Virus record (IMG/VR): IMGVR_UViG_3300030060_002738
Coordinates: 34,041 to 98,040 of that record
Length of the DNA: 64,000 bases
Strand: one strand, 5' to 3'
Origin: a virus
In this document: positions 3,706 through 28,257 of the stretch, in pieces
Numbering within the stretch: the first letter of the stretch is position 1
How the letters are laid out: each line of letters opens with the position of its first letter
Made by a program: the position numbers and the translations under genes
The notes under the pieces: model-generated
Databases searched by the model: none
Told to the model about the DNA's origin: nothing
Seen by the model: only the letters and a program-made list of their open reading frames with translations

Positions 3706-3911
3706 GAGACATAGAGAATCACATGGTAGCCCTACCACAACCGGAGTTGGAGTACGAACCTGAGTGCGACCATTCAGACATTCAACATCTAAATGTTGAG
3801 TGCTTTGGTGATGGAACATATATTGACTTCAGAATCAGATGTTGTGACTGTGGAGCCGAGGGTTATCGACTCTACACTATCAAAGAATGGTCAGATGACT
3901 TTGACAACTGA
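3702..3911 (+). CDS. small Zn-binding protein
   Basis: CDH...CCDCG motifs; SD and ATGA overlap. Confidence 0.65.
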   Translation: MRDIENHMVALPQPELEYEPECDHSDIQHLNVECFGDGTYIDFRIRCCDCGAEGYRLYTIKEWSDDFDN

Positions 3912-6845: not shown

Positions 6846-7124
6846 ATGAGTTGGGAAGATGTATTGAAGAAACCACTTATTCCATCAGAAGAAGAGGTTG
6901 AAGAGATGCTCGATTTTATGAACGTCAGTCCTAGAATGAAGATGGCGAAGTTAGAACGTCAGATTCTAAGAGAGATTGAGAAGGAAGGAGGTGCTTTGGG
7001 AATGAAGAACCTGAAGCAGTTTGCTGATGAGGATAAGTTGAAAGAAGTTCTATCTAGCATGGAGAAAGAAGGCAAGATATTCATGCACAAGGATGGAGAC
7101 ATCTACACACATGAACCGAAGTGA
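6846..7124 (+). CDS. small protein with N-terminal W-motif; possible winged helix
   Basis: Starts MSWEDVLKK. Confidence 0.75.
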   Translation: MSWEDVLKKPLIPSEEEVEEMLDFMNVSPRMKMAKLERQILREIEKEGGALGMKNLKQFADEDKLKEVLSSMEKEGKIFMHKDGDIYTHEPK

Positions 7125-7129
7125 TTTAG

Positions 7130-7444
7130 ATGAGTTGGGAAAAGATATTGAAAGGAAATGGTAAAGACCCGCAAAACCATACGTTTGCATTTGTTGTTGA
7201 ATGTGATGTTTACGATATGGATTCAGATGTTGTTGACTTTCATATGGAACAGGGCAGTGATTTGATAGAAAATATAGAAGATGCGATTGTTAAAGCATTA
7301 GACAAGAAGATAGGTGATGCCATATTTGACCTTCCTGTGGATATCAGTGGAATCGAAAGTGACATGGAAGAGTTAGAGATGGAAGGGTTTGACACTCTAG
7401 AAAACAGGGTTACCGTTTCTATTAGGGCTGTCGCAAAGAAGTGA
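7130..7444 (+). CDS. acidic protein with N-terminal W-motif
   Basis: Starts MSWEKILKG. Confidence 0.75.
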   Translation: MSWEKILKGNGKDPQNHTFAFVVECDVYDMDSDVVDFHMEQGSDLIENIEDAIVKALDKKIGDAIFDLPVDISGIESDMEELEMEGFDTLENRVTVSIRAVAKK

Positions 7445-7449
7445 TTGAA

Positions 7450-7692
7450 ATGACATGGTTCGATGTTCTGAAACTCGACCCTTTGGAATACAACATGCGA
7501 ATGCGAGACAGGTTGGCTACCAAGCCTCCTTCAAAGCCAACAGCAGAGCCTTCACAAACCACTCCTACAAAACAACAGTGTGATGTCTGTGGGAGGATGA
7601 AACTAAACGTGAAGGAACGTGCTGATGGCTCTACTATCTGTTCAGTCTGTGAAGCAATGCAAAGGCGAAAAGATACTGAAGCAACAAGTTAA
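7450..7692 (+). CDS. Zn-finger protein with N-terminal W-motif
   Basis: Starts MTWFDVLKL; CDVC...CSVC. Confidence 0.75.
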   Translation: MTWFDVLKLDPLEYNMRMRDRLATKPPSKPTAEPSQTTPTKQQCDVCGRMKLNVKERADGSTICSVCEAMQRRKDTEATS

Positions 7693-7738
7693 TTAGAACA
7701 ATGTTTATTGTCCACAGTATATTCAGGAGGTTCAGGTT

Positions 7739-7933
7739 GTGTCATCAGCATACGATTCATCTTGGTTTAATATCCTGCGAGCGGAGGGCGCAGTTACATC
7801 AACCTCCCCCGGAACACAGGCACTATTCAATATAAGATTCGGGGGAAAAAGGAAGCATGGGAAAAAGAAAAGAAAGAAATCTAAAACCCATAAAGAAGGC
7901 AGAGATAGCACCCGGCTTGCCCGTAGACTTTGA
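7739..7933 (+). CDS. small basic protein with W-motif
   Basis: GGAGG SD; SWFNILRA near the N-terminus; K/R-rich tail overlaps the next gene. Confidence 0.5.
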   Translation: MSSAYDSSWFNILRAEGAVTSTSPGTQALFNIRFGGKRKHGKKKRKKSKTHKEGRDSTRLARRL

Positions 7934-8945
7934 AGGCGAGATTCCTAACTTCGCTGCTCTTTACAATCGATGGGAGAAAAAGGCGGAGCAGTTCAAGATT
8001 GACTACACTGGTAGAACGAACACCAACGTTTTAGATTGGATTGGAAATATCGGACAGAAGGGAAGGGCCAAGCCTGATGGTTCGACTGGCACAGCAGTAG
8101 CCCCTCCTCAAGAGTACATCGACAGAGCCAAAGATGCTGGAACGAAGGATGAGTATTCTTCTGAGCAGATATCAGCGATAAAGCAACTTCAACAGTACCT
8201 CATAGAGAACAAGAACTCAACGACATCAGAGGTTAATCCTGCCAATATCAAATTCAACGACATTCGCTCTTTTGATAAGAGCGGGAAGATACTTTCTAGA
8301 AGGGATGTGTATGGTGATTTCAGAACCAAACAGTTTGTGAAGTATCAAGCAAGGCACAAGAAGAAGACCTTCGCACCTGCGGATACTCACTATCTTTCTA
8401 GACAGCCCGGTAAGGCAAGACCCCCTACTTGGCAAGCATTGTTTGGGAATACCAAAGATGTCGCTTTGGACTTCAATAGTCCTAGTCTTCTGATGATAGC
8501 CACTTTCACTCTCGATGCCTTTGCTAGTGGAAAGGCGAAGGGAAAAAACACCAAGGCAAGACCATTCAACCTAACTAGGGTTAGGCCAAGCATCAGGGGA
8601 GAGGCAGCGAAGTGGGCTTACGAGAACATAAGCGATTTGAAAACTTGGTTCGATAGCAAGATGAAGGACTCTTCATACCTTTACACGACTGGTAATCTGA
8701 ATGACAGAAAATTACACAGAGACATCAAGGAGAGACCCTTCAAGTTGACAGATAATGAATCCAAGAAATTGCTAGAGTGGGTAGGGGCAGATGTGAATGT
8801 CGATTTGGATAAGGTCTTCATCAATCTATCAAGAAGGCAACTTAGGAATATGGCAGAAATTGCTGGTTTTGAGAATCAAAAAGAAAAAGAGGAAGTGAAA
8901 AAGCACGATTCCTCGGATTGGAGAGAAATTGTAAAGGCGGTATAG
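7857..8945 (+). CDS. basic hypothetical protein (362 aa) with C-terminal W-motif
   Basis: Long ORF ending DWREIVKAV. Confidence 0.8.
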   Translation: MGKRKERNLKPIKKAEIAPGLPVDFEGEIPNFAALYNRWEKKAEQFKIDYTGRTNTNVLDWIGNIGQKGRAKPDGSTGTAVAPPQEYIDRAKDAGTKDEYSSEQISAIKQLQQYLIENKNSTTSEVNPANIKFNDIRSFDKSGKILSRRDVYGDFRTKQFVKYQARHKKKTFAPADTHYLSRQPGKARPPTWQALFGNTKDVALDFNSPSLLMIATFTLDAFASGKAKGKNTKARPFNLTRVRPSIRGEAAKWAYENISDLKTWFDSKMKDSSYLYTTGNLNDRKLHRDIKERPFKLTDNESKKLLEWVGADVNVDLDKVFINLSRRQLRNMAEIAGFENQKEKEEVKKHDSSDWREIVKAV

Positions 8946-9042
8946 AAAATGAAGTGTAGAGGAATAAAGGAAGTACACCATGATAATATGGCAATAACGA
9001 CATGTTGCCCGTATTGTTACACAAATTGTTGGGGTGGTTGAA

Positions 9043-9228
9043 ATGGATTGGAAAAAAATTCTGAAAGAAGAGATGACTGAGGAAGAGAGAAAGAAGTACA
9101 TGAAGAGATTAGCAGAGTTGCAGCGATTGGAGGAAAACATGAAGCGAGACGTAGAAGGAACTGCTGAAGCATTCAGAGAAGGAGAATCTCTTGAACAGTA
9201 TAAGAAAAGAATGGGATACAACTTCTAG
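9043..9228 (+). CDS. small coiled-coil protein with N-terminal W-motif
   Basis: Starts MDWKKILKE after a GGGGTGG SD. Confidence 0.7.
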   Translation: MDWKKILKEEMTEEERKKYMKRLAELQRLEENMKRDVEGTAEAFREGESLEQYKKRMGYNF

Positions 9229-9236
9229 GTGATTGG

Positions 9237-9893
9237 ATGATTACGAGAAAGCGGTGTCCTCTCTGTATGCATGAGGATAGAGCCATGTTTGAGAGTGACT
9301 TAGAGGAGATGAGTTACACCGCAGATGCTCTTGACCAACAAATGGGTTGGAAAAGTGGCACAACAGCAAAGCATCAGAGGAATCACATGGGAGGATATGT
9401 CGATTCTGCCAATCCAAGTTGTAATATCTGCACAAGTCCAATGAGAAACGAGTTAGAAGCCCAACTTCATGCCGGAGAACTTACTCCTTCGCAGGTTGGA
9501 GAGATGGTTGAGAGTTCAGAGGTGCAAGTAATGCGTCATATGGAGAAACATCTTAAGCCAATCGTGCAACAATCTGCGGCAAATCTGATTGCAGCGAGAG
9601 AAGTCGATGAAATTCAGACCTTGAGCGTCAACGTTCAGCGATTGGAGCAAAAAATTGATACACTTTTCTCTGAAGATTCGACAGACCCGAAATATATCGA
9701 CTCATTGACTAAATTAGCGAAGGAAGTTCGTGAATCTCTGAAGTATTTGCTAGAGTTCAAGGGCAAACTAGTGCATAAGAGACAAGATACCATCATCGTT
9801 CATCAGATGCAGGTCATCAAAGAGGTTCTAGCACAGAATCATCCTGAAGTTTGGTTGGATGTAAGAGACAAAATGCAGGAGAAGATGCAATGA
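9237..9893 (+). CDS. tandem Zn-finger/HTH protein; terminase small subunit candidate
   Basis: Two CxxC...HxxxH units each enclosing an HTH-like segment, C-terminal coiled coil, upstream of TerL. Confidence 0.45.
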   Translation: MITRKRCPLCMHEDRAMFESDLEEMSYTADALDQQMGWKSGTTAKHQRNHMGGYVDSANPSCNICTSPMRNELEAQLHAGELTPSQVGEMVESSEVQVMRHMEKHLKPIVQQSAANLIAAREVDEIQTLSVNVQRLEQKIDTLFSEDSTDPKYIDSLTKLAKEVRESLKYLLEFKGKLVHKRQDTIIVHQMQVIKEVLAQNHPEVWLDVRDKMQEKMQ

Positions 9894-11647
9894 GTTGGCA
9901 AGAGGTTCTCAAAGAAAAGAAGGTTGAAGCAAAACCTGTTGCTGAACCAATAAAGAAACAGGAAGTCAAGGACTTTCCAATAAAACCCGATTCAGCCACA
10001 TTCAAGATTTGGCAAGCAGCGTCTAAGGATGATACATGGGCGGATTACACAAAAGACGGTTTGACTTCTTCCCAAGTCCAATCTGTTCAGAAGGCAAAGA
10101 GACTTCTTCAAGGGGAAGTTGTGAACATCGGAGGAACTGACTTTCAGTTAAAGGACAGAGATGCGGTAGGTAATGTCAATGCGATTATTTCTAGATTGGA
10201 TAACATAACACCAAAGAAAACTAGTCTTACTGCGAAGAGAAGAAAGGTTAATGCCGATGTAAAACACTTCATTCAGAATGAGAAGTATGATGAACTTCTC
10301 AATCTACTAGAAGGTAGAGGACAAGACAAGTATGCAGGGAAGTTATCGAATGTTGCTCAAAGGGCAAGAAAAATAATTCAAGAGTCTAAGATACTGAAGA
10401 ACAAGATACTCAGTGGTGCTGAAGACAAGCATCCTGAGTTGGTTAGGATAAAGGAAATTCTAAAGATAGGAGGAGTTCCTCAGATTGAGATAAATCAGAC
10501 AATTCCCGAACCCACTGTTGTTTCTTACATCAAGAAGATAATGGCACTTAACTTCAGTAAGAACTCAAGGAACAAGACGGACTTCATCTATGAGGATGCA
10601 AACGACCAACTTGCTAGGAATATATTCGGACACACCAAGATTCTTCCTTCATTGGAGTTCATCTTGGATAACGAGGGACTGAATGAGAGCAACATACCAA
10701 CAGCCTACAAGAAGAGAAACGTGATTGAGAACATCGCTTTGCAGAAGTTGATTGCTGGTGTTCTATCAGAGGAGAACAAGGATGCTCAGAAATCCATCAA
10801 CAGTATCTACGACAAGTACAAGGAAGACATCGAGGCATTCTACGGGAGAGAGGGGGAGACTCCTGAAGAGGCAGAGAAAAGGCAGAAACTTCGTAATGAG
10901 AGCAGGGGGAAGTGGGATGCCATATCAAGGAAGGGCAACAAAGCAAGAAGGGACTTCTTCGCAGAGATTAGGGAAGATGATGACACCAATGCTTACTTTG
11001 AGGACTTGATGGCCGAAGTGACAGAGGACAAGACAAACAAGATGACATCGGAGATTAGAGATGAACTCGTAGAGGCGTTGCAGAACAGTGACCCCGATGA
11101 CTTCACAGCCTCTCTCAAAAAACTAGGAATCCAAGACACGTTTGATGACATGGAAGAGATTGATGAAAAGTTAGACGTTGACAAGACAATAGATGCTTTA
11201 GTGCAAATGAAGACATTGCCTAATGGTCTAGTAAGACCTGTTGCGGGAACAGAGGAGACTCTCAGATACTTTGACGAGCAGGAGATTGATGCTTGGTCTA
11301 TCTTAGAGGATGTGATAGATGATGACATCACAACTTTCGATGCAGGACAGACTGGAACACTAGACAAGATTGTTATCATACAGAAGAGACTTGGGGAACT
11401 GTATGATGTTGAGCCTGAGATAGATGAGGAGGATGTCGAGAACGGAGACATGACCAGCGAGGAGTTCAAGCAGTTGATTCTAGATACTTACAGCCCGATT
11501 CGTAAAGCGTTCCTTGAGGGCGTTGCAAAGAGGATGAAGGACATTAGTGCAGAAGGGAAGGTTCTAGGAAAGAAGATAAAGAGTTCACAAGGCGGTTTCG
11601 TTGAACCTGCCATTTGGATTCAGATACAATTAGGGGTGAGCGAGTGA
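9890..11647 (+). CDS. large helical protein with N-terminal W-motif (putative internal virion protein)
   Basis: Likely start MSWQEVLKE at 9890 (ATGA overlap with the upstream stop). Confidence 0.75.
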   Translation: MSWQEVLKEKKVEAKPVAEPIKKQEVKDFPIKPDSATFKIWQAASKDDTWADYTKDGLTSSQVQSVQKAKRLLQGEVVNIGGTDFQLKDRDAVGNVNAIISRLDNITPKKTSLTAKRRKVNADVKHFIQNEKYDELLNLLEGRGQDKYAGKLSNVAQRARKIIQESKILKNKILSGAEDKHPELVRIKEILKIGGVPQIEINQTIPEPTVVSYIKKIMALNFSKNSRNKTDFIYEDANDQLARNIFGHTKILPSLEFILDNEGLNESNIPTAYKKRNVIENIALQKLIAGVLSEENKDAQKSINSIYDKYKEDIEAFYGREGETPEEAEKRQKLRNESRGKWDAISRKGNKARRDFFAEIREDDDTNAYFEDLMAEVTEDKTNKMTSEIRDELVEALQNSDPDDFTASLKKLGIQDTFDDMEEIDEKLDVDKTIDALVQMKTLPNGLVRPVAGTEETLRYFDEQEIDAWSILEDVIDDDITTFDAGQTGTLDKIVIIQKRLGELYDVEPEIDEEDVENGDMTSEEFKQLILDTYSPIRKAFLEGVAKRMKDISAEGKVLGKKIKSSQGGFVEPAIWIQIQLGVSE

Positions 11648-14505
11648 AACCAAGCGTAGATTTGAACAGGGCATTTGAGATTTTTATCAAAGAGGGGAAT
11701 GCTGGCCTGAAGGAATACATGAAGCGGTTGAACGACCAATACTTAGATGAAGAGGGCAATCCTACGACTCCTGACTCCAAAGTTGCAGAGCAACTGAATC
11801 CTGATGAGATGACATATGAAGCACTCATAGCAGAACTGAAGAGAAGGGGAATAGACAAGTATGTTCCAAAGAAAAAGAAAGTCAAGAGAAAGGACTACAA
11901 CCCTGATACTGGAAAATTGCAAGAGAAAGAAGTCGAGATAGAAGAGCCAGTACCTGCTAAGTTCAACAAGGAGGAGGCGATTGCTAGGCTCAAACAGGAG
12001 ATAGGAGAAGCCCCTGCACCAAAGGAGAGAGTGACTGAGAAACTGAAACTCATAGATATGAAAGAGTTCCCTGATGATGTTCTCTATACCTACTTGAGAA
12101 AGAACTTCAACTCAGAATCAGAGAACAAGACTGCAATCATGCAGGGAGAGACCTTCCAAGGAAGGCTTCTAGTCAACCCTGATGGCACTCCTAGAAGTGG
12201 AGCGGAAATCAGAAACAAGGTAGAAGACGAGTTGAGAGACAAGTTCCCAATCATCTTCAGACAAGACAGACCAAAGCAGTACATAGACGAACTAGTTCGA
12301 TTGGGATTGAGAAGTTTCACTAGCAGAGTCGCTGAAGATGCTTCTGCTCTAACTAGGATGTCGTCTACTCAAATCATAGATGAGGCCAAGGAAGACAGCG
12401 ACGTAAATGATATTCTAGGCATGTTCACTGAGAAGGGAAGGAAACTGAACTACAAGGTGTTTGAGTTATACTTCAGGCAGTTTGCCCCGAAGAGGGAAAC
12501 GAGAAGGAACATCAAATGGAACAACTACGTCAACAGGACATACAGGTTAGGCTTCACTAGAGAGAAAGTCGATGAGGCCATAGACATCTTGGAGAACAAG
12601 ATACCTGACTACTTCGTTCCGATTCTGTTTCCTTTCAAGGCAATGCTCGTAAGTCTGAAGGATAAGAAGGAAACAGGACAGGGACAATATAGAGTGTCAA
12701 GATTGAGAGCATCTCAGATTATCGGAAGAGTGGATACTAAACAGATAAAGAAGAGAGCGGAGATATACGGGTATTGGAAGGAGAAGTCAAAGGAGTTTGA
12801 GGAGTTCAAGACTGCTCACAATAATTTCATGGATGCTATGGACAAGTTGGATGGCGAGTATTCACCTGAGTTGGAGTCCACTTTCAAGGAATTCAAGGCT
12901 ATCAAGATTGACAATCTGAATTACATCCAACGACATGACAGGGTTGACTTTGAGGATATAGACAACATAGAGCAGAAGTCAGTCGCACTTCTTCGCAGTT
13001 TCCTGAGTGATATCAGACAGATGCCACCTAACAGGGTAATCTTCACTGATGAGGAAACAGGCAAGGATGATGTCAGTAGATACGGAGAGTTGGAAACCGA
13101 CAACGAACTAATCGATGAGGAGAGTGAGTTGAGGGCTAAGATTAATTCCCTATCGAACAAGAAGGTAGACCCTCTTTACGCATACGCATTGAAGGAGGGA
13201 TTCACAAACGAACTGTCTGCTGGTGCAGTTGCCTCCAAGCAACTTGGTGAAATAAAGAGAAGATTGAAGACTGGTCTAGTATTGATAGAGATGGAGAATC
13301 TCATACCTAGAATAGACTCCTTCATCAAAAACTTAGAGAAGATGGAATCAGGAAACCTGAAGGATTTGTTTCTTCCAGTGTCAGATGCTATTGAAGGATA
13401 TGAGGGTAGCAAGAAGATAAATGATGATGTTGCAGAGTACCTGAGTCTGTTTGCTGAGTTTATTGAATATGGTGATGACTTCGATAGACGTTCAAAGGAT
13501 GCATCATCAGTCGTTGGACAAGGAGAGAGAAAGGTAGGTGGCAAGACCGTCAGGGAAGCAGCCTCCCCTAGAGTAGCATTAGGTAGAAGAGGAAAAAGAA
13601 AGACGCATCTAACTGAATTCAAGGAGTTGGATATCGCTACTAAGTTCAACAGCCTACTAGAGCAGATAGTCAACTTCTTCATCGAGCCGAGTAGAAGCAA
13701 GTACAAACCAACTGATGAAGCACTCCCCTACATCAAGAAGGTTGGTAGTCGTAAGATTGAGAACATCGTAAGAGAACCCAAGGCTGGTGACAGTCCATTC
13801 ATACATCTCCTTAGAATGGAGAGCGATGATTGGAGACTATCGATGTCCGATTTGAAAAACATATCCAAGTTCATGCAACTTCTAACTTCGCTCAATGTCG
13901 GGTCAAAGCAGAAGGAACTAGTGAGCGAGACATTTGACTTGGCTGATATGATAGACGATTTGTTTGAGGGAGAAATGACAGAGATGGTCAATGTGGAATT
14001 TGGGAATTTCTTGAGTGGTCTCTTTGAGGATGCTAATCTAGGTGATGTGAAGTTCGGACTAGGAGGCAAGAAGAAAGATACGAAGGAGTGGGCAGAGGAC
14101 TACAAGGCATCTAAACTGTATCCGTTTGAGTCCATCTTCAATCACTTGGTTATGAACAAGGAGAAGTATAAGGAAATGCAGGGAGCAACCCAACTCATCG
14201 ATAGGATTCTAACAGCAGAGAATGACCTGAACATAACCAAGTCTGCTGAACAGCGACTCGTATTGAAGGCACATGATGAGATTAGAAAGATGATGGGCAA
14301 ACCAACTTACTATGGTCTTTCCAAAGTCGAAGATTACAATGCAGTATCAGAGGCGATTAACATAATGAATAGCAAATACAATGTTGATATTACTGCAATG
14401 GATGTAGAGAATATTGTCAAGGAGTTTGATTCGATGACTAGCATCGGAACAAAGTACGGCATTCCACAAGAGGGGGTCTATTTCCTCAAAGCGAACTTCA
14501 GGTGA
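11644..14505 (+). CDS. large helical hypothetical protein (~950 aa; putative internal/ejection protein)
   Basis: GGGGTGA SD, GTG start; HeH/SAP-like EMTYEALIAELKRRGI; no catalytic motifs recognised. Confidence 0.75.
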   Translation: MKPSVDLNRAFEIFIKEGNAGLKEYMKRLNDQYLDEEGNPTTPDSKVAEQLNPDEMTYEALIAELKRRGIDKYVPKKKKVKRKDYNPDTGKLQEKEVEIEEPVPAKFNKEEAIARLKQEIGEAPAPKERVTEKLKLIDMKEFPDDVLYTYLRKNFNSESENKTAIMQGETFQGRLLVNPDGTPRSGAEIRNKVEDELRDKFPIIFRQDRPKQYIDELVRLGLRSFTSRVAEDASALTRMSSTQIIDEAKEDSDVNDILGMFTEKGRKLNYKVFELYFRQFAPKRETRRNIKWNNYVNRTYRLGFTREKVDEAIDILENKIPDYFVPILFPFKAMLVSLKDKKETGQGQYRVSRLRASQIIGRVDTKQIKKRAEIYGYWKEKSKEFEEFKTAHNNFMDAMDKLDGEYSPELESTFKEFKAIKIDNLNYIQRHDRVDFEDIDNIEQKSVALLRSFLSDIRQMPPNRVIFTDEETGKDDVSRYGELETDNELIDEESELRAKINSLSNKKVDPLYAYALKEGFTNELSAGAVASKQLGEIKRRLKTGLVLIEMENLIPRIDSFIKNLEKMESGNLKDLFLPVSDAIEGYEGSKKINDDVAEYLSLFAEFIEYGDDFDRRSKDASSVVGQGERKVGGKTVREAASPRVALGRRGKRKTHLTEFKELDIATKFNSLLEQIVNFFIEPSRSKYKPTDEALPYIKKVGSRKIENIVREPKAGDSPFIHLLRMESDDWRLSMSDLKNISKFMQLLTSLNVGSKQKELVSETFDLADMIDDLFEGEMTEMVNVEFGNFLSGLFEDANLGDVKFGLGGKKKDTKEWAEDYKASKLYPFESIFNHLVMNKEKYKEMQGATQLIDRILTAENDLNITKSAEQRLVLKAHDEIRKMMGKPTYYGLSKVEDYNAVSEAINIMNSKYNVDITAMDVENIVKEFDSMTSIGTKYGIPQEGVYFLKANFR

Positions 14506-14509
14506 GGAA

Positions 14510-14995
14510 ATGGCAGACATACAAATCAAGGAAGTTTCTGAAGCAGAAGCAATCCGCATGTGGAACAGGGATAACCCCGATGACCCATTCTCAAGACAAG
14601 CACCTTCATGGTATGACATACGCAATTGGATAGTGAGAACCAATGATGGAGAAGTAGTCGCAATAGCAGGTTATACTGACATGGGAGACTATGCCATACT
14701 TGGAGGCATGAAGGCTAGGAGTAAAGACAAACCAAAAGGCGGAGGAAACTGGAAGGCTTTGTTGAACTATCGAAAGAACATACTTGGCAACAAGCCGAAG
14801 ATAGCAGGGTTTCGTGCAACGAAGATGCCACAGGCAAAATGGACTGCTATGAATGAGAGGGCAGGTTATCAGCGAAAGGACATGATGGGCATCCCACAGG
14901 AACTCACTGACAAGTTCACTGAACGCTATGGAGATGATTGGGGCATAATGAAGAACACATCATGGTTCTTCCCAATGATGAGGGGGCTAATTTAG
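14510..14995 (+). CDS. GNAT-fold protein (putative acetyltransferase)
   Basis: WIVRTNDGEVVAIAGY...AILGGM...KGGGNWKALL pattern. Confidence 0.45.
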   Translation: MADIQIKEVSEAEAIRMWNRDNPDDPFSRQAPSWYDIRNWIVRTNDGEVVAIAGYTDMGDYAILGGMKARSKDKPKGGGNWKALLNYRKNILGNKPKIAGFRATKMPQAKWTAMNERAGYQRKDMMGIPQELTDKFTERYGDDWGIMKNTSWFFPMMRGLI

Positions 14996-16431: not shown

Positions 16432-16440
16432 GGTGACGAT

Positions 16441-17808: not shown

Positions 17809-17809
17809 A

Positions 17810-19444: not shown

Positions 19445-19545
19445 GCGACATACTTGAGTTTGTCAGGAAGTGGAAAGAAGAGATAGACAGACTCAATGCA
19501 GAAACAGATGAGAGACTAAAGAAATACTTGGAGGGAGAGAAGTGA
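19441..19545 (+). CDS. 34-aa microprotein
   Basis: Not in track; MSDILEFVRKWKEEIDRLNAETDERLKKYLEGEK exactly fills the gap, with 4-nt overlaps at both ends. Confidence 0.55.
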   Translation: MSDILEFVRKWKEEIDRLNAETDERLKKYLEGEK

Positions 19546-20342: not shown

Positions 20343-20607
20343 TTGGTTTGATTTTCTAAAGGCCAAGTCAAAGTCTCAGAGGTCTCTGTCAACTTGGACA
20401 GATGAGGAGTGGGGGAGTCAAGAACAGCATCGTGCAAAAGAGAAGGGAAAAAAAGCACCTTCCAAAACCAAAGGAAGATACATGCCAAAGGCCACATACA
20501 AAAGAACCCCAAAGAAGACATTGGACTATCAAGACAGAAAGAAAAGGAAGGGTCGTAAGAAAGGAAAGCAACATGTCCCAACAGGAAGGAAGTTCTCTCA
20601 GAAGTGA
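20335..20607 (+). CDS. basic DUF5872-like C-half protein with N-terminal W-motif
   Basis: GTG start, MADWFDFLKA; QRSLSTWTDEEW...GRYMPK. Confidence 0.65.
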   Translation: MADWFDFLKAKSKSQRSLSTWTDEEWGSQEQHRAKEKGKKAPSKTKGRYMPKATYKRTPKKTLDYQDRKKRKGRKKGKQHVPTGRKFSQK

Positions 20608-20612
20608 TTATC

Positions 20613-21020
20613 ATGCCAATTCGTAAAGTCAAAGGAGGATACAAGTGGGGCAAGAAGGGCAAGGTCTATCGAAGTCGTAAAGGTGCTGAGAGACAAGCAG
20701 CCGCCGCTTATGCTTCAGGCTACAAGAAGTCAATGAATTGGTTTGATACTCTAAAGAGAGACAAGAAAGACATGAGAGTTGGTACTGTTTATCCTTCAGA
20801 TAGAGAAGGTAAGAAAATTATGATGCTAACCCATGAAGGAAAGAAGATTCATGCTGGTGCTAAAGGCTACGGTAATTACAAGAGAAAGGGTAAGAATCGT
20901 GGAGGTGGAACACACAAAGACCCTGCTAGGAGAAAGAATTTCAGAGCAAGGCATAACTGTGACCAATGTAAAGGTAGAATTACTACCCCTAAGTGCCTAG
21001 CATGTAAAAAACTGTGGTGA
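20613..21020 (+). CDS. very basic two-module protein (DUF5754-like C-module) with internal W-motif
   Basis: MPIRKVKGGYKWG module + MNWFDTLKR + KKIHAGAKGY...RRKNFRARHNC module. Confidence 0.7.
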   Translation: MPIRKVKGGYKWGKKGKVYRSRKGAERQAAAAYASGYKKSMNWFDTLKRDKKDMRVGTVYPSDREGKKIMMLTHEGKKIHAGAKGYGNYKRKGKNRGGGTHKDPARRKNFRARHNCDQCKGRITTPKCLACKKLW

Positions 21021-21025
21021 GAGAG

Positions 21026-21202
21026 ATGAATTGGAAAGAGACATTGAAGAAACAAACAGAGAACGAACCTAAAATGGTTGACCCTGCTCAACAAGAGGAG
21101 ATGGACAAGGCACTTGTTGGAGGTCAGAAGGAACTCGACAAAGACAAGGATGGAGACATTGATGCTAAAGATTTCAAACAACTAAGGGAGGAAAGGAAAT
21201 GA
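21026..21202 (+). CDS. small EF-hand-like protein with N-terminal W-motif
   Basis: Starts MNWKETLKK; LDKDKDGDIDAKDF. Confidence 0.7.
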   Translation: MNWKETLKKQTENEPKMVDPAQQEEMDKALVGGQKELDKDKDGDIDAKDFKQLREERK

Positions 21203-21429
21203 CAGAGAAAAAGAAAGGAGTAAGAGAATTGGAAAGAGAACTAGCAGAAGCAAGAGCAGAGCAATACGCTCACCACAGTAGAAGTGTGACAAAGAACAGG
21301 GACTTCTCTGTTGGGGGTGTTGACCCTAATGCTGTGAAGAAGGAGAGACCTGATACAGCAGATGTTCCTGATGCAATCCTACTACCTAAGAAAAAGAGGT
21401 CAAGAACACCGAACAACCCTTGGGGATGA
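21199..21429 (+). CDS. hypothetical protein
   Basis: ATGA overlap; purine-rich SD. Confidence 0.7.
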   Translation: MTEKKKGVRELERELAEARAEQYAHHSRSVTKNRDFSVGGVDPNAVKKERPDTADVPDAILLPKKKRSRTPNNPWG

Positions 21430-21434
21430 TTCAG

Positions 21435-22517
21435 ATGGCGCAGGATTTCATGGATATCTTGCGTAAGAAGAAGGATGAAGATTTCTTTACTGGCGAGGAG
21501 GATATCACTGATTTCCAAAGAGATGTCGAACAGGACACTGATGAGGGAACGACTGACACCATGATGGGCAGGTTGGATAGAGATACTAGACAAGGGATAA
21601 GCGGTGCAGAGGCAGCAGACGAACTAGATGCGAAGAGAAAGAAGAAGTTGCAGGAAAAGGCAGTTAGTGCGAAGAACCTACAAATGTGGGGAAGGATACT
21701 AGAAACCTTCAGTAAAAACCCTGACATCACGGCTAATGAAATACGGGATGCAGTAAAGGAGTTCAGTAAATCTTTCTTGATTCCAAGAAATAGAAGCAAA
21801 GATAAGATAAACAGATTCTATCAGAGTATAATAACACAACAAGCAGACCCTAAACTCTTGAACTTGTTTTTTGCCAAGCCTGAAGATAAAGGCATACAAG
21901 TTTCAGGAGATGTAGAAGCACTTGGCTTCGACCTCTCAGAAGTAGAAAGGGAATATAATGGACAAGAATCGCTTGATATTCTAAGAGAGTTCTTTGAAGC
22001 AACTGCTGATATGCCTAGAGATTTGCTTACTGGTAAGAAGATGACGAGGAGTAAATTGGACAGGTTAGAAGCCATGCTCATAAACACAGCAAAAATGGAT
22101 ACCGATAATCTCCCTAAAGACCCTAAGCAGATACTGAAACTTTTCAGAGAAATAGTATTGACTCTTGATAGATACAAGGAAAATGAACAGTCTAAACTTA
22201 GCAAAGAAGACTCGACTATTGATAGTAAGGATAGAAATTGGGAAATGAAAGTCGAACCCGGTGAGTTTTCCTATCAAACAGAGACAGAAGTATTCGATAT
22301 AAATCCCTCTGTTCTAGGTAGTGTAGAGGTTCTACTAGACAATCTTGAGAACATGATGAACGATGTAACACAAAGAAAAACTAACTCTGATGATACAGAT
22401 GAAGTAGATAGTTTGGATAAACTGCTGAAGCAGATGAAGAGTTTAATTAAAGTAACAATAGGAGATTACAAATTCAAACTCTCAGATGATGAAACAAGGG
22501 CAATTAAAATTAACTGA
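21435..22517 (+). CDS. acidic helical hypothetical protein with F-variant of the motif
   Basis: Starts MAQDFMDILRKK. Confidence 0.75.
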   Translation: MAQDFMDILRKKKDEDFFTGEEDITDFQRDVEQDTDEGTTDTMMGRLDRDTRQGISGAEAADELDAKRKKKLQEKAVSAKNLQMWGRILETFSKNPDITANEIRDAVKEFSKSFLIPRNRSKDKINRFYQSIITQQADPKLLNLFFAKPEDKGIQVSGDVEALGFDLSEVEREYNGQESLDILREFFEATADMPRDLLTGKKMTRSKLDRLEAMLINTAKMDTDNLPKDPKQILKLFREIVLTLDRYKENEQSKLSKEDSTIDSKDRNWEMKVEPGEFSYQTETEVFDINPSVLGSVEVLLDNLENMMNDVTQRKTNSDDTDEVDSLDKLLKQMKSLIKVTIGDYKFKLSDDETRAIKIN

Positions 22518-22538
22518 GCATACACAGGAGGCAACCAC

Positions 22539-22868
22539 ATGACATGGCAGGAGATACTGAAAGCCTCCGAGTTTCTAGAGAAACTAGAGCCAAAACAGAA
22601 GAAGAAGATAAAGAAACTTCTTCAGTCAACACAGCCAACTGAGTACATGGGACAAGAGATGACGAAGTTAGAAGATGTCATTAAGGAGATGGAAGACCTC
22701 GATTTAGTAAAAACAGACAAACTACTCACAAAGAAGATGAAGTCCTTCCGTGAGAAGAATCTAGACATACTCGCAAGTGCTGCTGAACTTCGCAAAGATT
22801 ATCAAACGCTCTATGACCAAATCAGGAGCGTAGCATACCCAAAGGGTGACAAGGAGGAAAAGAAATGA
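22539..22868 (+). CDS. coiled-coil protein with N-terminal W-motif
   Basis: GGAGG SD; starts MTWQEILKA. Confidence 0.8.
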   Translation: MTWQEILKASEFLEKLEPKQKKKIKKLLQSTQPTEYMGQEMTKLEDVIKEMEDLDLVKTDKLLTKKMKSFREKNLDILASAAELRKDYQTLYDQIRSVAYPKGDKEEKK

Positions 22869-23191
22869 ATTGGTTTGACATAATGAAAATATACGGCAAT
22901 GAAGAGGAGAATAATCTACCTAGAGAAATACTTGACCTTCTTGAGAAGTTAGAAGAAATAGAAACAGACTACAATGCTAAGGTGGATGAATTTGATTACG
23001 AGTTAAGCGAAACATGTGAAAAGATACTTGACTTTGTACAGAATGATGCAAATTTGGAAGGTAAGAATAAAAATGTCCTAATAAACATAACTAGAGAACA
23101 TCAGAGGAAGTCAGTTTCAGAAAGTGACTATGAAACAGTATATCACTATTTCACAGATATCTATACCGAATTAAACGAGGTGGAAGAGTGA
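22865..23191 (+). CDS. acidic protein with N-terminal W-motif
   Basis: Starts MNWFDIMKI. Confidence 0.75.
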   Translation: MNWFDIMKIYGNEEENNLPREILDLLEKLEEIETDYNAKVDEFDYELSETCEKILDFVQNDANLEGKNKNVLINITREHQRKSVSESDYETVYHYFTDIYTELNEVEE

Positions 23192-23367
23192 GTTGGTTTG
23201 AAACACTAAAGGGAGATTGTGGCACAGAGAAGTCAGATGAGATGGCAAGAGTTACAACAACAGCCTCCACCGGACAAGACAAAGAAGCGGCCAAGAGGAC
23301 TGAGGATAAAGAAGCAGAACTATTGGCTATGATACGTGAGAGAAACAAGAAAGCGAGGGGAAATTAA
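23188..23367 (+). CDS. 59-aa protein with N-terminal W-motif
   Basis: Not in track; GAGGTG SD, GTG start, MSWFETLKGDCGTEKS...KKARGN; exactly fills the gap. Confidence 0.75.
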   Translation: MSWFETLKGDCGTEKSDEMARVTTTASTGQDKEAAKRTEDKEAELLAMIRERNKKARGN

Positions 23368-23685
23368 ATGACATGGCATGACATACTAAAAGCACCTCCA
23401 ATAAGAAACCCTAGAGAATCAGAGTTTGATGATAGAAGTAATGACAATCTATCATTGCCTGAGTATGTTGATTTGTTCAGAGAGAAAGTAGACCCAATAA
23501 TAAGAGAAGCAGGTGAAAGGGAAGAAAAGTATGCAACCATTAAACTCACTGACTTGAAAATGACACGGACAAAGGCACAAGAAATAGCAAGGGAACTATA
23601 TAGGGACAAAGGCTACGCCGCAATATTTGCTGGTTCAGATGGTGAATTAACATTCAAACTAGAAGGGGAACAAAGGAAGTATTAA
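23368..23685 (+). CDS. small protein with N-terminal W-motif
   Basis: Starts MTWHDILKA. Confidence 0.8.
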   Translation: MTWHDILKAPPIRNPRESEFDDRSNDNLSLPEYVDLFREKVDPIIREAGEREEKYATIKLTDLKMTRTKAQEIARELYRDKGYAAIFAGSDGELTFKLEGEQRKY

Positions 23686-23687
23686 AG

Positions 23688-23912
23688 ATGAGCAAAAAAG
23701 AAGAAAAAGACGAAATGTTACTATTAATGAAAGAACTTGTGAACAAGGTCAACGCCTTGGAGCAAGCAGTATACAACAAGGACAACCTACTGATGAAGTC
23801 AGGATATGTTGTTCGTGAGACTCCAACACCAGTTATGAACAATACACAAGTTCCTGATGGTGGTCAAATGTCTTGGGATGAGATTCGCAAGATGACGGAG
23901 AAAATGGGGTGA
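23688..23912 (+). CDS. mini-scaffold-like protein
   Basis: N-terminal coiled coil and C-terminal QMSWDEIRKM, mirroring both ends of the scaffold domain. Confidence 0.65.
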   Translation: MSKKEEKDEMLLLMKELVNKVNALEQAVYNKDNLLMKSGYVVRETPTPVMNNTQVPDGGQMSWDEIRKMTEKMG

Positions 23913-23917
23913 GATGA

Positions 23918-24409: not shown

Positions 24410-24412
24410 GGG

Positions 24413-26977
24413 ATGAAAACATCAGGCGTATCCTTTGAAAAGGAAACTAAGGCTCTATCAAAAAGAGTTCTAGATTTCTTTGAGAGGGTGCGTTACGCAT
24501 ACCTATCTGCAAAGGAGAACCCGAAGGAGTACGGTAAGAACTGGAAGGCAACCGTCAAATCCATCCGTGAAGAGTATGATGGGCTAGGAGAGTTCGCTAG
24601 TGAACTGAAAGAGAACGTCAAGGAGAAGGAACTCTTTGACGACAAGGTGTATGATGCTGAGAGTCTACTTGCTAGAAGGGTGTATGAAGACATAAAGAGA
24701 ATGCGATTTGAGTCAAAGGGAGCGGCAGACCCGTTTTCAGAACAACTAGGAAATAAGGTCTTAGAAGTCCTATTAGACGACAAGGCTACTTTCGCTGCAT
24801 TCATTCACTATGCTTTGAGAAGTCACTCCAACCCACTGCCTAAGAAAGCATGGAAAGAGAGCAAACTAAAGCCTGACGAAATAACTCAGGGATACATGGG
24901 ATTGGACTTAGAAGAGAGAGATATTCCTCTATACATCATTGAGCATTATGGTGATGATAAGGACTCTAGGAGAGTGCAAGGAAAGTTCAAAGAAGCACTT
25001 GGTATTTTAGAGGAAGTATACAACAGCAGTTATACAGAAGACAAGTGGGAAGCCTTGAGAGATATCGATATCGCAAAGTCCGAGGAAATGAAAGAGGACA
25101 TTGATTTCATCATACCCAACAAACCGATGTATAGAATCTTTGAGTTAGATGACATGAAAGACATCAAGGGGCTGAGTGGAGAGTATGTCGTACAAGAGAA
25201 GTATGATGGAATGAGAATACAAATCCAAAAGGTCAACAAGGACATCAAGATATACTCATACAATGAAAAGGACATCACGGATAAATGTCCTGAGATTGTA
25301 GAGAAGATGCAGAAAAAGGGGATTGGTGACTGCGTTCTAGATGGCGAACTACTACTGTTTCAAGGAGACGATGCACTACACAGAGCGAGTGTGATAACTC
25401 ACATCTTCAAGAAGAAGATACCCGATACAAGACTAAGAGCGCATGTCTTTGATGTTATGAAGCACGAAGGTAAGGACTTGATGGATGAACCTCTAAGAGA
25501 AAGGATAAACATTCTATTCTATCAATACTCGCAACACTCATCAGATGAATTGGCTTTCCCTTCCAAGAAGGATACAAGGATTGCTGACTCTATGGAGGAA
25601 GTCGGAGAGTATGCAGAGAAGATAATGGAGATGCCAACCTCGGAAGGTGTTGTCATCAAGGACATCGAATCTACATACTACATGGGTAGGAAGAAGAACC
25701 CTAAGTGGATTAAGTGGAAGAAGTTCGTGGATTTAGATGTCATAGTCCTAGAAGACAGGAAGACCAAAAGCGGTTTGCATTCATACACTATGGGAATAGG
25801 GCCATTGACTGCTGAACAGACTAGAGAGATGAAGACAATTGAACTCGATGATAAGAACTACCTCCCTGTTGGTAAGGCATTGAATACCAAAGTAGAGGTT
25901 GATATTGGAGATATCATTCGTGTCAAGGTTGATGAGGTTACTAAGAAGGGCAAGGGATTCAGTCTCTACTCTGCTAAAGTCATAGAGTTGCCTGAAGTAG
26001 AAGAGTCAGACAAGTTGGAGACATTGGAGCAACTAGCCACTAAGACGAAGAAAGCCCTGATACCGAAACATCCTTTCATCAGACCATCTGATTTGACTAG
26101 CCCTCTCACAGTCATATCAGAATTACAGAGAGAAAAGAAGAACAAGAGGAGGATAAAGAAATATCTTGTTACCGATTATGTTCATGGTGAAGCAGAGATA
26201 ATCTGTAAGCATGAACTAGAGGGGTTCACAATCTATGGGTTCGATGGTGATTCCCTAATGCAGAAGAATGCACTTTACAATATGGATGAATGGAGAGGAC
26301 AACTAGAGAAACTAATGAAGTCTCGGAAGTCCAAACTCAGAGTTGCAATTAGAAAAATCATAGAGGAGAATCAGAAACCCGTAGATTTCGATGAGTTAGA
26401 TGAGAAACTGAGAATTACCGAGGAAGATGCATATGATGAAATCTTTGAGGGCAAACCAAAGAACCTCTTGGCATGGATGAAGAATCAAGATGCTTTCATC
26501 TTTATTTCTCCTGACAAGTTTGATGTTTCTCCTGAGAATATAGAGAAGGATGAGGATAAGGAATTAACAGGAGAGTTTGAAGTCAGACAGCGTGAGGATG
26601 GAAACTTAGATTTCATAATAGAGACTGATAACAAGAGAATGGCTTGGTTAATTGACCTAGAAAAGCCTGAAGATATCTTTGATTTATTTGGTAAGTCAGG
26701 AAAGTTCCCTGCTATGGTATCAGAGAAGATAGACAGCACAAAAGTCATTGATAGCGGAGAACTGTTGTTTGGTGTTCAACGAGATGGTTATCATGAATAT
26801 CGAATGGAAGGAGATAAGTTCCAAACTAGAATACACTTCAGAGTTGTTCCACTAGATGAGAAAAAGTCTTGGATAGTATTTACAGGCAAGAAACAGGACA
26901 TGTTAGAAGATACTTCTGATGAAGGAATCATCGATATTAGAAAAGACAAGTTTAGTAATTTACAACTACCTGAATAA
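24413..26977 (+). CDS. lig: ATP-dependent DNA ligase with N- and C-terminal extra domains
   Basis: Motif I EKYDGMR, III LDGEL, IIIa VFDVM, IV EGVVIK, V WIKWK, followed by an OB-fold region. Confidence 0.9.
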   Translation: MKTSGVSFEKETKALSKRVLDFFERVRYAYLSAKENPKEYGKNWKATVKSIREEYDGLGEFASELKENVKEKELFDDKVYDAESLLARRVYEDIKRMRFESKGAADPFSEQLGNKVLEVLLDDKATFAAFIHYALRSHSNPLPKKAWKESKLKPDEITQGYMGLDLEERDIPLYIIEHYGDDKDSRRVQGKFKEALGILEEVYNSSYTEDKWEALRDIDIAKSEEMKEDIDFIIPNKPMYRIFELDDMKDIKGLSGEYVVQEKYDGMRIQIQKVNKDIKIYSYNEKDITDKCPEIVEKMQKKGIGDCVLDGELLLFQGDDALHRASVITHIFKKKIPDTRLRAHVFDVMKHEGKDLMDEPLRERINILFYQYSQHSSDELAFPSKKDTRIADSMEEVGEYAEKIMEMPTSEGVVIKDIESTYYMGRKKNPKWIKWKKFVDLDVIVLEDRKTKSGLHSYTMGIGPLTAEQTREMKTIELDDKNYLPVGKALNTKVEVDIGDIIRVKVDEVTKKGKGFSLYSAKVIELPEVEESDKLETLEQLATKTKKALIPKHPFIRPSDLTSPLTVISELQREKKNKRRIKKYLVTDYVHGEAEIICKHELEGFTIYGFDGDSLMQKNALYNMDEWRGQLEKLMKSRKSKLRVAIRKIIEENQKPVDFDELDEKLRITEEDAYDEIFEGKPKNLLAWMKNQDAFIFISPDKFDVSPENIEKDEDKELTGEFEVRQREDGNLDFIIETDNKRMAWLIDLEKPEDIFDLFGKSGKFPAMVSEKIDSTKVIDSGELLFGVQRDGYHEYRMEGDKFQTRIHFRVVPLDEKKSWIVFTGKKQDMLEDTSDEGIIDIRKDKFSNLQLPE

Positions 26978-27015
26978 CCACCTACTTCTTATAGTAAGAG
27001 AAATAGGTGCAGTGA

Positions 27016-28257
27016 GTGTTTGCTGAACAGGAGGTATTGATTAGACAAGAGAGTGCTAGTGATTTTACTATTCTCAAGTCAGATAATCTAGTAATTGGAG
27101 GATATGCTTCAATAGAAATAGTAGATAAACAGAATGACTTGATTACACTAGAAGCACTTGAAAAAGCCGTTAAAGATTTCATGAGTGAGAAGTCTTACAG
27201 AAACGTCATGTCAAATCATTCCAACGTTCAGGTAGGAGAGGTGATAGAGCAATACCGTGATTCCAATGGTACATTACACAAGACAGGTGTAGATGGTGTC
27301 GGATTCTATGTGGTTATCAAAATGAGAGATGACATAGAAAAGGCAAAAGAGATTAACAGAGGAATCAGAAAAGGCTCACTACGCTCTTTCAGTATTGGTG
27401 GACAAGCGATATCAAAGAGAGAGAGAAAATCGGAGGAATACGGGGAATACAACGAGATTGACAACTTAGAGTTGCATGAAGTTACTATATGTGAGAAAGG
27501 AATAAACCCTGAAGCGAAATTCGACATTTTAAAAGCGAAAGGAGGTAAAGAAATGACGGAAAAATTGACGAAAGCATTGGAAGAACTCAACGGTCTGCTA
27601 ACACAGGTTCGTGAAGTTACTGGTGAAACAGTCGCAAAAGAAGATGAATTGGAGACAATGGAAATGAAAGAAGATGAAAAAATGATGACCGAAAAGGAAG
27701 AAGTTGAGAGTATGGACATGGATGAAGATAAAATGTCTATGAAGGAAGACGAAGTTGAGAGCATGGATATGGAAGAGAAGGCTCTTGATGAAGACTCGAC
27801 TAGAGACTATGAGGCTGGCGAGAACGTTGTAGTAAACGGAAAGCCAGTGGCAGCACCTGCTGCACTATCAGTCTCTAAGGGTCTAGAAGGTACTGACTTC
27901 ACGACTCTCGACCTAAGTGCCGAGAATGTAGAGAAGGCTTACGAGGCTTACAAAGCAGAGCAACTAGAGGCAATGGCTTACGATAACCTATCGAAGCAAT
28001 TTGCTGACAGATTTGCTGCTGAACTTGAAGTCAAGAAATCAGCCGCAGAGAGAGCAGAATACGATGCTTCAACAGAAGTAGCCGCTCTCAAAGAGGAGTT
28101 TGCAGAACTACGCAAGTCTCTTACTGCAAAGGATGATGAGATAAGGAAAGCAACAGAAGTCGCTTTCTCTCTACCTGAAGGATTCCCAACCACTGCTGAC
28201 GCAATGGCTGAGATGTCATGGGGAGACATACACAACCTCGCAAGGAAGGTGAACTAA
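27016..28257 (+). CDS. HK97-type prohead protease fused to scaffolding domain
   Basis: GYAS..VDKQND, NH, SFSIGG, EVTIC..GINPEA; acidic coiled-coil C-half; directly upstream of MCP. Confidence 0.9.
   Translation: MFAEQEVLIRQESASDFTILKSDNLVIGGYASIEIVDKQNDLITLEALEKAVKDFMSEKSYRNVMSNHSNVQVGEVIEQYRDSNGTLHKTGVDGVGFYVVIKMRDDIEKAKEINRGIRKGSLRSFSIGGQAISKRERKSEEYGEYNEIDNLELHEVTICEKGINPEAKFDILKAKGGKEMTEKLTKALEELNGLLTQVREVTGETVAKEDELETMEMKEDEKMMTEKEEVESMDMDEDKMSMKEDEVESMDMEEKALDEDSTRDYEAGENVVVNGKPVAAPAALSVSKGLEGTDFTTLDLSAENVEKAYEAYKAEQLEAMAYDNLSKQFADRFAAELEVKKSAAERAEYDASTEVAALKEEFAELRKSLTAKDDEIRKATEVAFSLPEGFPTTADAMAEMSWGDIHNLARKVN

Follow-up and report, generated by a model that had tools for sequence, protein, structure and literature searches.

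Why should 13 genes of an archaeal virus, otherwise unrelated in sequence and crowded around the terminase and portal genes, begin with nearly the same eight residues? This question is raised by a 64,000-nt stretch of DNA (hereafter, the window), positions 34041-98040 of a single 98,040-bp virus record (IMG/VR IMGVR_UViG_3300030060_002738) whose completeness is rated 100%. In the window, 13 open reading frames (ORFs) within positions 6846-23685 begin with M/V-x-W-x-x-[IVTA]-[LIM]-K (hereafter, the tag), and another five or six have variant, internal or C-terminal copies of it. Based on sequence comparisons of this genome and its relatives, we give a probability of about 55% to the reading that the tag is a portable capsid-targeting peptide, probably clipped by the prohead protease, that works like the capsid-targeting sequence (CTS) of phage T4.

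A short peptide at the starts of genes around the terminase and portal

All twelve tagged starts listed in the original prediction, which had been made from this DNA alone, were found, and so were the variant, internal and C-terminal copies that it named: SWFNILR (7763), MAQDFMDILRK (21435), KWQDILHK (20136), DWREIVKAV (8916) and MSWDEIRKM (23868). One start residue had to be corrected, as the tag at 20335 begins with V, from a GTG codon, and not with M as had been written; GTG starts are found in three tags (19542, 20335 and 23188). The 13th copy, MNWFDTLK (20733), is preceded by an ATG, yet it lies inside a frame that is open from 20604. A 14th N-terminal copy is located outside the window, in a 235-amino-acid (aa) gene of no assigned function on the minus strand (genome positions 3003-3710), at the end of the opposite-strand arm.

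To define the motif and its distribution, a related set of 80 IMG/VR loci (1.5 Mb) was used, in which tags were counted per strand relative to the portal gene. Full tags numbered 478 on the portal strand versus 10 on the opposite strand, and the corresponding numbers for starts of the form M-x-W were 587 and 42. These strand counts, together with the control counts, exclude a chance origin of the tags. The consensus drawn from 415 instances in the relatives is M at position 1, S/T/N/D at 2, W at 3, F/Q/E/K at 4, D/E/N/S at 5, I/V/T at 6, L/I/V at 7 and K at 8. Position 8 is Lys in 95% of the instances, and Lys- or Pro-rich linkers often come next.

The tagged genes are confined to a small part of the genome. 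Within the region of the window described above, 10 of the 21 gene-like ORFs are tagged, compared with 1 of the 104 elsewhere in this genome (Fisher p = 2e-8). In the related loci with full flanks, tagged genes are found from 10 to 4 kb upstream of the portal start, again about 1 kb upstream, and from 1 to 6 kb downstream; not a single tag falls over the ligase, protease and major capsid protein (MCP) genes, and the next 6 kb contain 1 tag in 25 loci. When a strict DNA pattern was applied to five complete relatives, the 46 matches on the portal strand were all in the terminase/portal neighbourhood after the contig ends had been joined, and the same five genomes gave 3 strict-pattern matches elsewhere and 0 with a reversed-pattern control. 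Thus, the view that the tag occurs only in the head module is borne out by two blocks that flank the terminase and portal genes, both here and in the relatives, and is breached by one gene, the tagged 235-aa gene on the opposite strand.

Constraint on the peptide and its predicted fold

Across the families of tagged proteins, Leu7 is encoded by all six codons at frequencies like those of the gene bodies, and the Lys, Ile, Val and Asp codons vary as well, with a pairwise nucleotide identity of 0.25-0.59 at the variable tag positions. The earlier statement that the codons of the tag vary therefore stands for these residues. It does not stand for Ser2, whose codon is AGT in 89% of the tags versus 30% in the gene bodies; because untagged genes with Ser2 also favour AGT (73%), this bias is attributable to a general start-context preference of these viruses. 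As the codons vary and copies of the peptide also exist that are not next to a start codon, the constraint acts on the peptide and not on the nucleic acid.

The tag is also the best-conserved part of divergent families. In the family of the 585-aa protein, whose members are 15-20% identical, only seven columns are invariant, and M1, W3, L7 and K8 make up four of them. The four core residues of the tag reach 69-88% identity (0.69-0.88) in comparisons in which the bodies have 28-47% (0.28-0.47). In the most widespread family, that of the 109-aa ORF, a 70-residue Zn-finger insertion is found between tag and body. Tag status is stable within families, since none of the untagged proteins of the window (362, 963, 360, 854 aa and others) has a tagged counterpart in the relatives.

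AlphaFold2 (AF2) models of the 585-aa and 109-aa proteins predict the tag as a short helix spanning residues 3-9, with W3, I6 and L7 on one face. In the 585-aa model a disordered linker follows at residues 10-23, and in the 109-aa model more short helices come directly after the tag.

Proteins that carry the tag

The tagged proteins of the relatives fall into about 140 single-linkage BLAST families, 75 of which are singletons. An alignment of 139 family representatives (alignment A1) has only W3 as an invariant column, with M1 and K8 more than 90% conserved, and a mean column identity of 3%. The bodies are thus unrelated, as the original prediction had held, and its identifications in this genome also proved correct: a PAP2 phosphatase with all three catalytic motifs intact, a peptide with a CxxC...CxxC pattern, an EF-hand loop, basic peptides and a mostly helical 585-aa protein. 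The charge of the bodies is bimodal, with isoelectric points (pI) of 4-6 in 96 of the 139 families and of 9-11 in 26.

Among the 139 representatives, Pfam gave isolated matches only, to PAP2, DUF6321, DUF5754, the DnaJ Zn finger, the B-box and the EF-hand, and a search of the tagged proteins against PHROGs returned families of unknown function only. The protein atlas searched with the 360-aa and 585-aa proteins gave no matches. The AF2 model of the 585-aa protein (predicted local distance difference test score, pLDDT, 74) had no meaningful match in the PDB, and its matches in BFVD were unnamed viral proteins only. Judging from these searches, most tagged bodies appear to match no known protein.

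Two of the proteins around the portal combine modules. In the 266-aa PAP2 protein, the internal KWQDILHK (20136-20159) is followed by a basic tail homologous to stand-alone tagged peptides. Further upstream, the 64-aa ORF with a variant tag (7739-7933) and the start of the 362-aa ORF (7857) overlap by 77 nt, across a G5A5 run and A-rich repeats (window 7830-7875); a frameshift, programmed or due to sequencing error, could fuse the variant tag to the 362-aa body.

Resemblance to the tail of the scaffold

The S78 prohead protease of this virus is fused to an acidic scaffold domain, and a motif M-S-W-G-D-I-H-N-L begins 14 residues from the C-terminus of the fusion protein (28213-28254 for these 14 residues, which start with MSWGDIHN). 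The first six residues of the tag, M-S-W-x-D/E-I, are identical to this scaffold-tail motif in this lineage. At the tail position, 60-odd distinct relatives show [ML]-[SD]-W-x-[DE]-[IL]-[HN]-x-[LIFM], and [ML]-S-W-x-[DE]-[IL]-H-x-L also ends protease-scaffold homologues of 33-50% identity in a library of 1.8 billion proteins. Some distant homologues (P0113, P0091 and P0019) have F or Y instead of W in the tail; P0113, P0091 and P0015 had no relatives among the viral contigs searched. A 74-aa protein encoded at the end of the second block of small genes carries M-S-W-D-E-I-R-K, also exactly 14 residues from its end. With a relaxed pattern, this genome yielded the N-terminal tags, the tails of the scaffold and the 74-aa protein, and eight scattered weaker matches, four of which lie in short out-of-frame ORFs.

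An in-frame start nested within the protease/scaffold gene, preceded by a strong Shine-Dalgarno sequence (AGGAGGT), predicts a separately made 234-aa scaffold from ATG 27553, and scaffold-only proteins of 227-228 aa are present in the library (P0010 and P0042). With the nested start, protease and scaffold share one C-terminal tail. In the nested protease/scaffold pairs lambda C/Nu3 and herpesvirus UL26/UL26.5, the shared tail carries the protease into the procapsid, and it is normally by its C-terminal end that a scaffold is attached to the capsid. In HK97, too, the C-terminal part of the maturation protease is reported to be a capsid-targeting signal, in work by Duda, Oh and Hendrix in 2013. 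With its first six residues, the tag thus copies what is presumably the capsid-binding end of the scaffold.

A candidate cleavage site

The end of the tag, [IL]-L-K or [IV]-L-K, recurs at three places in the head proteins. The Pfam S78 envelope (residues 26-173) is preceded, at a distance of five residues, by FTILK (27064-27078) and closed by an invariant N-P-E-A-K-F-D-I-L-K (FDILK, 27520-27534), and N-A-L-L-K is conserved at residues 24-28 of the MCP (28328-28342), ahead of the region that can be aligned with haloarchaeal virus proteins. All three sites are kept at about 40% identity in a sister lineage described below, as [SA]-L-L-K, F-[RS]-I-L-K and S-E-L-L-K. This is the pattern that would be expected of a protease that trims itself, the MCP and the cargo after Lys. 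The original prediction had not taken into account this aspect of the motif, the recurrence of its end at domain borders of head proteins. In the C-terminal copies of the tag, only one or two residues follow the K, which shows that the motif must have a role in binding as well.

The sister lineage and the nearest cultured relative

A sister lineage, represented by 74 contigs related to a 45%-identical protease, was examined for comparison. The M-x-W tag is absent from these 74 contigs (105 versus 107 starts on the two strands). The slot between portal and protease is filled there by a single ORF of 1,400-2,100 aa, of which residues ~1425-1721 match the ligase region of the 854-aa protein of the window with 27-29% identity over ~330 aa (L215:4173-9971 and L178:3514-9945, where the ORF has 1,900-2,100 aa). 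A ligase in the cargo slot of a head module is unusual, and the 854-aa protein may be virion-borne.

A second flavour of the tag, F-x-x-A-W-x-[VIL]-L-K, is found near N- or C-termini in the sister lineage, with 30 copies on the plus strand and 0 on the minus strand, and 5-9 copies per genome where controls gave 0-1 (L162-L235, e.g. L215:14072-15395). The two flavours have only W...h-L-K in common. The sister lineage keeps the scaffold-type tail M-S-W-x-E-[IV]-H on its scaffold and on a small ~110-aa protein; its counterpart of the 74-aa protein of the window has 106-115 aa. Within the window, the 161-aa protein (14510-14995) has a similar Y-G-D-D-W-G-I-M-K near its C-terminus.

The syntenic slot of HVTV-1, the nearest relative in culture, is occupied by a MuF-like protein and by one of 1313 aa with Zeta-toxin and ADP-ribosyltransferase domains. 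MuF, Zeta-toxin and ADP-ribosyltransferase-type domains are typical of virion-borne effectors. Because the HVTV-1 slot holds domains of this kind, the slot looks like a variable cargo locus, occupied by one giant protein in some lineages and by many small tagged proteins here.

Genome organization and affiliation

The plus strand of the window begins with an array of small genes (6846-11647), followed by a 963-aa protein, the terminase, a 455-aa HNH-like protein and the portal; after the portal come a second small-gene array (19542-23912), a 163-aa protein, the 854-aa ligase-domain protein, the protease/scaffold and the MCP, and downstream of the MCP a tail tube, a tape measure and giant fibre-like proteins (Table 1). 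The C-terminal part of the 455-aa protein (16441-17808) is HNH-endonuclease-like (phrog_5046). It is kept at the same place in the sister lineage with 30% identity and is therefore not a recent homing insertion. Downstream of the MCP, a 223-aa protein (31571-32242) has weak matches to the small GTPases Roc, MMR_HSR1 and Arf.

The rightmost ORF of the window (58238-64000) runs past the end of the record, and G000:C1:1-2262 is an ORF that is 5'-open at base 1. Since ORFs are open at both record ends, the 98-kb record is probably circularly permuted, and the fibre-like protein encoded by these two parts may exceed 2,600 aa.

Among named records, the MCP and the protease have relatives in two groups only, the haloarchaeal tailed viruses HVTV-1 and HCTV-1/5 and viruses with methanogens as their assigned hosts, which agrees with the earlier assignment to an archaeal virus. 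Portal and protease are common to more than 200 IMG/VR contigs at 55-99% identity, many of them 90-103 kb long. These features fit a magrovirus. One record, L259 (IMGVR_UViG_3300021958_000021; 184,733 bp), is almost twice the usual magrovirus size and has eight tagged genes and one doubtful match within 12 kb, as well as homologues of the terminase and PAP2 proteins of the window; it could represent a concatemer or a misassembly, or else a relative of larger size.

Table 1. Genes of the head module and copies of the tag, in window coordinates
Feature	Position	Strand	Remarks
Tagged ORF, 92 aa	6846-7124	+	MSWEDVLK; acidic
Tagged ORF, 104 aa	7130-7444	+	MSWEKILK; acidic
Tagged ORF, 80 aa	7450-7692	+	MTWFDVLK; CxxC...CxxC zinc-ribbon-like body
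ORF, 64 aa	7739-7933	+	variant tag SWFNILR at residues 8-14
Protein, 362 aa	7857-8945	+	ends with DWREIVKAV (C-terminal copy), kept in a 50%-identical relative
Tagged ORF, 61 aa	9043-9228	+	MDWKKILK
Tagged protein, 585 aa	9890-11647	+	MSWQEVLK; mostly helical
Terminase large subunit	14938-16431	+	untagged; context
Portal protein	17810-19444	+	untagged; context
Tagged protein, 266 aa	19542-20342	+	VSWFDAIK, acidic linker, PAP2 core (residues 100-188)
Tagged ORF, 90 aa	20335-20607	+	V-ADWFDFLK; very basic
ORF, 138 aa	20604-21020	+	basic 43-aa module, internal MNWFDTLK (20733), Cys-rich DUF5754 body
Tagged ORF, 58 aa	21026-21202	+	MNWKETLK; EF-hand-like loop
Protein, 360 aa	21435-22517	+	variant tag MAQDFMDILRK; F-for-W and R-for-K kept in its family
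Tagged ORF, 109 aa	22539-22868	+	MTWQEILK; most widespread tagged family, 54/80 loci
Tagged ORF, 108 aa	22865-23191	+	MNWFDIMK; acidic
Tagged ORF, 59 aa	23188-23367	+	VSWFETLK; GTG start
Tagged ORF, 105 aa	23368-23685	+	MTWHDILK
Coiled-coil-like protein, 74 aa	23688-23912	+	last 14 residues begin MSWDEIRK (scaffold-type C-terminal motif)
Protein with ATP-dependent DNA ligase domain, 854 aa	24413-26977	+	untagged; slot directly before the protease
S78 prohead protease	27016-28257	+	Pfam residues 26-173; fused to acidic scaffold domain
Nested in-frame scaffold gene, 234 aa	27553-28257	+	AGGAGGT 7 nt before ATG
HK97-fold MCP	28259-29620	+	aligns with haloarchaeal virus MCPs from residue 58

Interpretation of the tag and alternative explanations

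In the interpretation that we favour, that of a capsid-targeting peptide, the tag M-[STND]-W-x-[DE]-[IV]-[LIV]-K would form a short helix of amphipathic character, one face of which displays W, I/V and L, and would be joined to the body by a flexible linker. It copies the conserved C-terminal motif that presumably holds the nested protease and scaffold inside the procapsid, and because of this copying any protein that carries it, whether N-terminally, C-terminally or between modules, would be built into the interior of the procapsid during assembly. After assembly, the S78 prohead protease would cut the N-terminal tags off, and the clipped cargo would be free to leave with the DNA. This removal is probable because the tag end [IL]-L-K matches the borders of the protease domain and the N-terminus of the MCP. 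The original prediction had called the motif an address label for capsid cargo. The clustering around terminase and portal, the match to the scaffold tail and the tag as the best-conserved part of divergent families agree with that proposal; binding of the tagged proteins to the capsid interior, their encapsidation in the virion, the cleavage of the tag and the delivery of the cargo are what we infer from them.

Several observations weigh against this interpretation. The [IL]-L-K end is a short motif, for which about one occurrence in 800 residues is to be expected, proteases of this clade generally have the NPxAKFxILK end, and the residue after K in the tags is mostly K, A, E or R, unlike the small residue after the K of the MCP and protease sites. 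The tagged 235-aa gene lies in the opposite-strand early arm, and 13 to 20 cargo species per capsid would be an unusually large load. In the sister lineage, tag and scaffold tail have no more than [SA]-W in common, and some copies of the tag are far from head genes, so scaffold mimicry may be lineage-specific or partly coincidental; this weak resemblance lowers our confidence that scaffold mimicry is the whole story. Finally, HVTV-1 is untagged and no cultured relative carries the tag, and therefore no virion proteome bears on it.

Other functions of the motif would account for part of these data. It is unlikely, in our judgement, that the motif is mainly a prohead-protease site, cut after [IV]-L-K, that marks the module borders of a functionally split polyprotein and is not itself the address. 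The bracketing of the S78 domain by [IL]-L-K and its presence in the MCP N-terminus, kept in two lineages, would suit such a site, as would the internal tags exactly at fusion joints (PAP2/basic tail; basic module/DUF5754 body), the single giant ORF in the same slot of the sister lineage and the restriction of what the two flavours share to W...h-L-K. However, a cut in the C-terminal copies would be pointless, as it would leave two residues (AV, in the window) or one (in the sister lineage) after K; W3 is invariant though five residues from the putative cut, the P1' residue is not conserved in the tags, and the substrates of an S78 protease, which is active nowhere but in the procapsid, need targeting there anyway. 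Somewhat unlikely, too, is that the tag docks its carriers to another late or assembly hub (portal, terminase, scaffold core or a chaperone), so that the proteins act in the cell or in assembly and are not carried in the mature virion. The positional and conservation evidence applies equally to docking of this kind, most bodies are small, acidic and helical like scaffold-type helpers, and SaPI1 CpmB illustrates that a carrier of a scaffold-like C-terminus can influence assembly instead of serving as cargo (PMC12810830, PMC12749128). Bodies that are enzymes or very basic, DNA-binding-like peptides nevertheless suit cargo better than assembly helpers, and so high a family turnover (75 singletons among 140 families) is unexpected for assembly factors.

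Two further explanations are much less probable than these. That the invariant Lys is a modification acceptor, for instance of a viral ubiquitin-like/E1 system, with the tag as the recognition motif of the enzyme, seems highly improbable, although K8 is so strongly conserved and a ThiF/E1 gene occurs in 5/5 complete genomes of the tag-rich lineage and in 0/5 sister records, three of these being only 80-89% complete. This contrast amounts to a single phylogenetic split, the sister lineage without E1 still has 5-9 copies of the W...L-K tag per genome, and Lys modification explains neither the flanking of head genes nor the copying of the scaffold tail. In the present genome the ThiF/E1-like gene is at G000:C1:26466-27032 on the minus strand, outside the window. 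We consider it least probable of all, to the point of being nearly negligible, that the motif is a nucleic-acid element (a translational operator, a start-context enhancer or a cassette recombination joint) with the peptide as a by-product. ATG-AGT-TGG is strongly conserved and the genes are cassette-like with high turnover, but third positions and the first base of Leu vary freely after the first nine bases, to the identities given above, AGT at codon 2 is general to untagged genes, and the same peptide occurs internally and C-terminally, where there is no start context. A signal at the DNA or RNA level was thus rejected on codon variation and on the copies that are not at starts. A secretion or membrane signal was rejected as well, since it would suit neither a charged, amphipathic tag nor soluble bodies, most of which are acidic.

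Taking the capsid-targeting peptide one step further, we tentatively propose, at somewhat less than even odds, that a lineage-wide eight-residue address derived from the scaffold tail loads a changing arsenal of proteins that is injected with the DNA, with 10-20 protein species per virion, more than 100 families and a second dialect in the sister lineage. Such an arsenal would include enzymes and Zn-finger, Ca-binding and DNA-coating peptides.

Comparison with known systems

The closest parallel is the CTS of T4, which is carried by the internal proteins IPI-III and by Alt. It is enough on its own to bring a foreign protein into the prohead, where the prohead protease afterwards clips it off (Mullaney and Black 1996; see the reviews PMC3012670 and PMC9024508). 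Both are short N-terminal peptides on unrelated, fast-changing proteins encoded near head genes, and the T4 cargo also includes basic DNA-associated proteins and enzymes. However, there is no sequence similarity between the two, the protease here is of the HK97-type Peptidase_S78 (Pfam 4.1e-09) and not of the gp21 type, and gp21 cuts after L/I-x-E, whereas the candidate site here ends in Lys. T4 has a handful of tagged genes, compared with 10-20 per genome and about 140 families in 80 loci here; the host is archaeal, the tag also occurs internally and C-terminally, and it copies the scaffold tail. By sequence and organization, the tag system would be an analogue of the T4 CTS and not a homologous member.

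The shared C-terminus of S78 protease and scaffold, made through a nested start, resembles the arrangement of the HK97 protease, lambda C/Nu3 and UL26/UL26.5, with the difference that the tail here carries M-S-W-x-D-I. In those systems the signal is only on the protease and scaffold, whereas here the motif is copied to many unrelated N-termini. Entry of foreign proteins into the procapsid at the scaffold site, by means of a capsid-binding scaffold end, has parallels in CpmB of SaPI1, which competes with the scaffold of phage 80alpha (Dearborn et al. 2017, cited in PMC12810830 and PMC12749128), and in the engineered cargo loading achieved with P22 scaffold fusions (PMC9962691). CpmB is, however, a single protein that redirects capsid size, and P22 loading is man-made, whereas a natural and large cargo set would apply here; the tag system is not homologous to CpmB or to the engineered P22 cargo.

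The cargo-loading peptides of encapsulins are also short terminal peptides, which dock diverse cargo on the inner face of an HK97-fold shell. Unlike the tag, they are usually C-terminal, extended, Gly/Ser/Leu-rich and uncleaved, and they have no sequence similarity to it; encapsulins have no portal, terminase or DNA, whereas terminase, portal, tail tube and tape measure are present here. In phage P1, a ~30-residue N-terminal signal directs the anti-restriction protein DarB into the head, and DarA, a substrate of the prohead protease, attaches to the inside of the capsid (PMC9024508, PMC12810830). The P1 signals are longer than the tag and are not a common short motif of many proteins.

No publication on the tag was found in the magrovirus literature searched, and neither of two papers on magroviruses, PMC5434244 and PMC11706807, speaks of an N-terminal motif.

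Implications

In the surface ocean, magroviruses count among the most abundant viruses, and we know of no cultured member. To our knowledge, the principle of cargo that mimics the end of a scaffold is limited to a single bacterial protein (SaPI1 CpmB) and to engineering (P22), and no account of it exists for archaeal viruses or on such a scale. Should the tag prove to be a capsid address, each genome would directly reveal which proteins the virus injects, and the turnover of this set, with about 140 families across 80 loci, would be the trace of an arms race with the defences of Poseidoniales. The tag would then also represent a natural programmable protein-delivery system, in which an eight-residue tag that works at either terminus would serve as a compact handle for loading HK97-fold shells.

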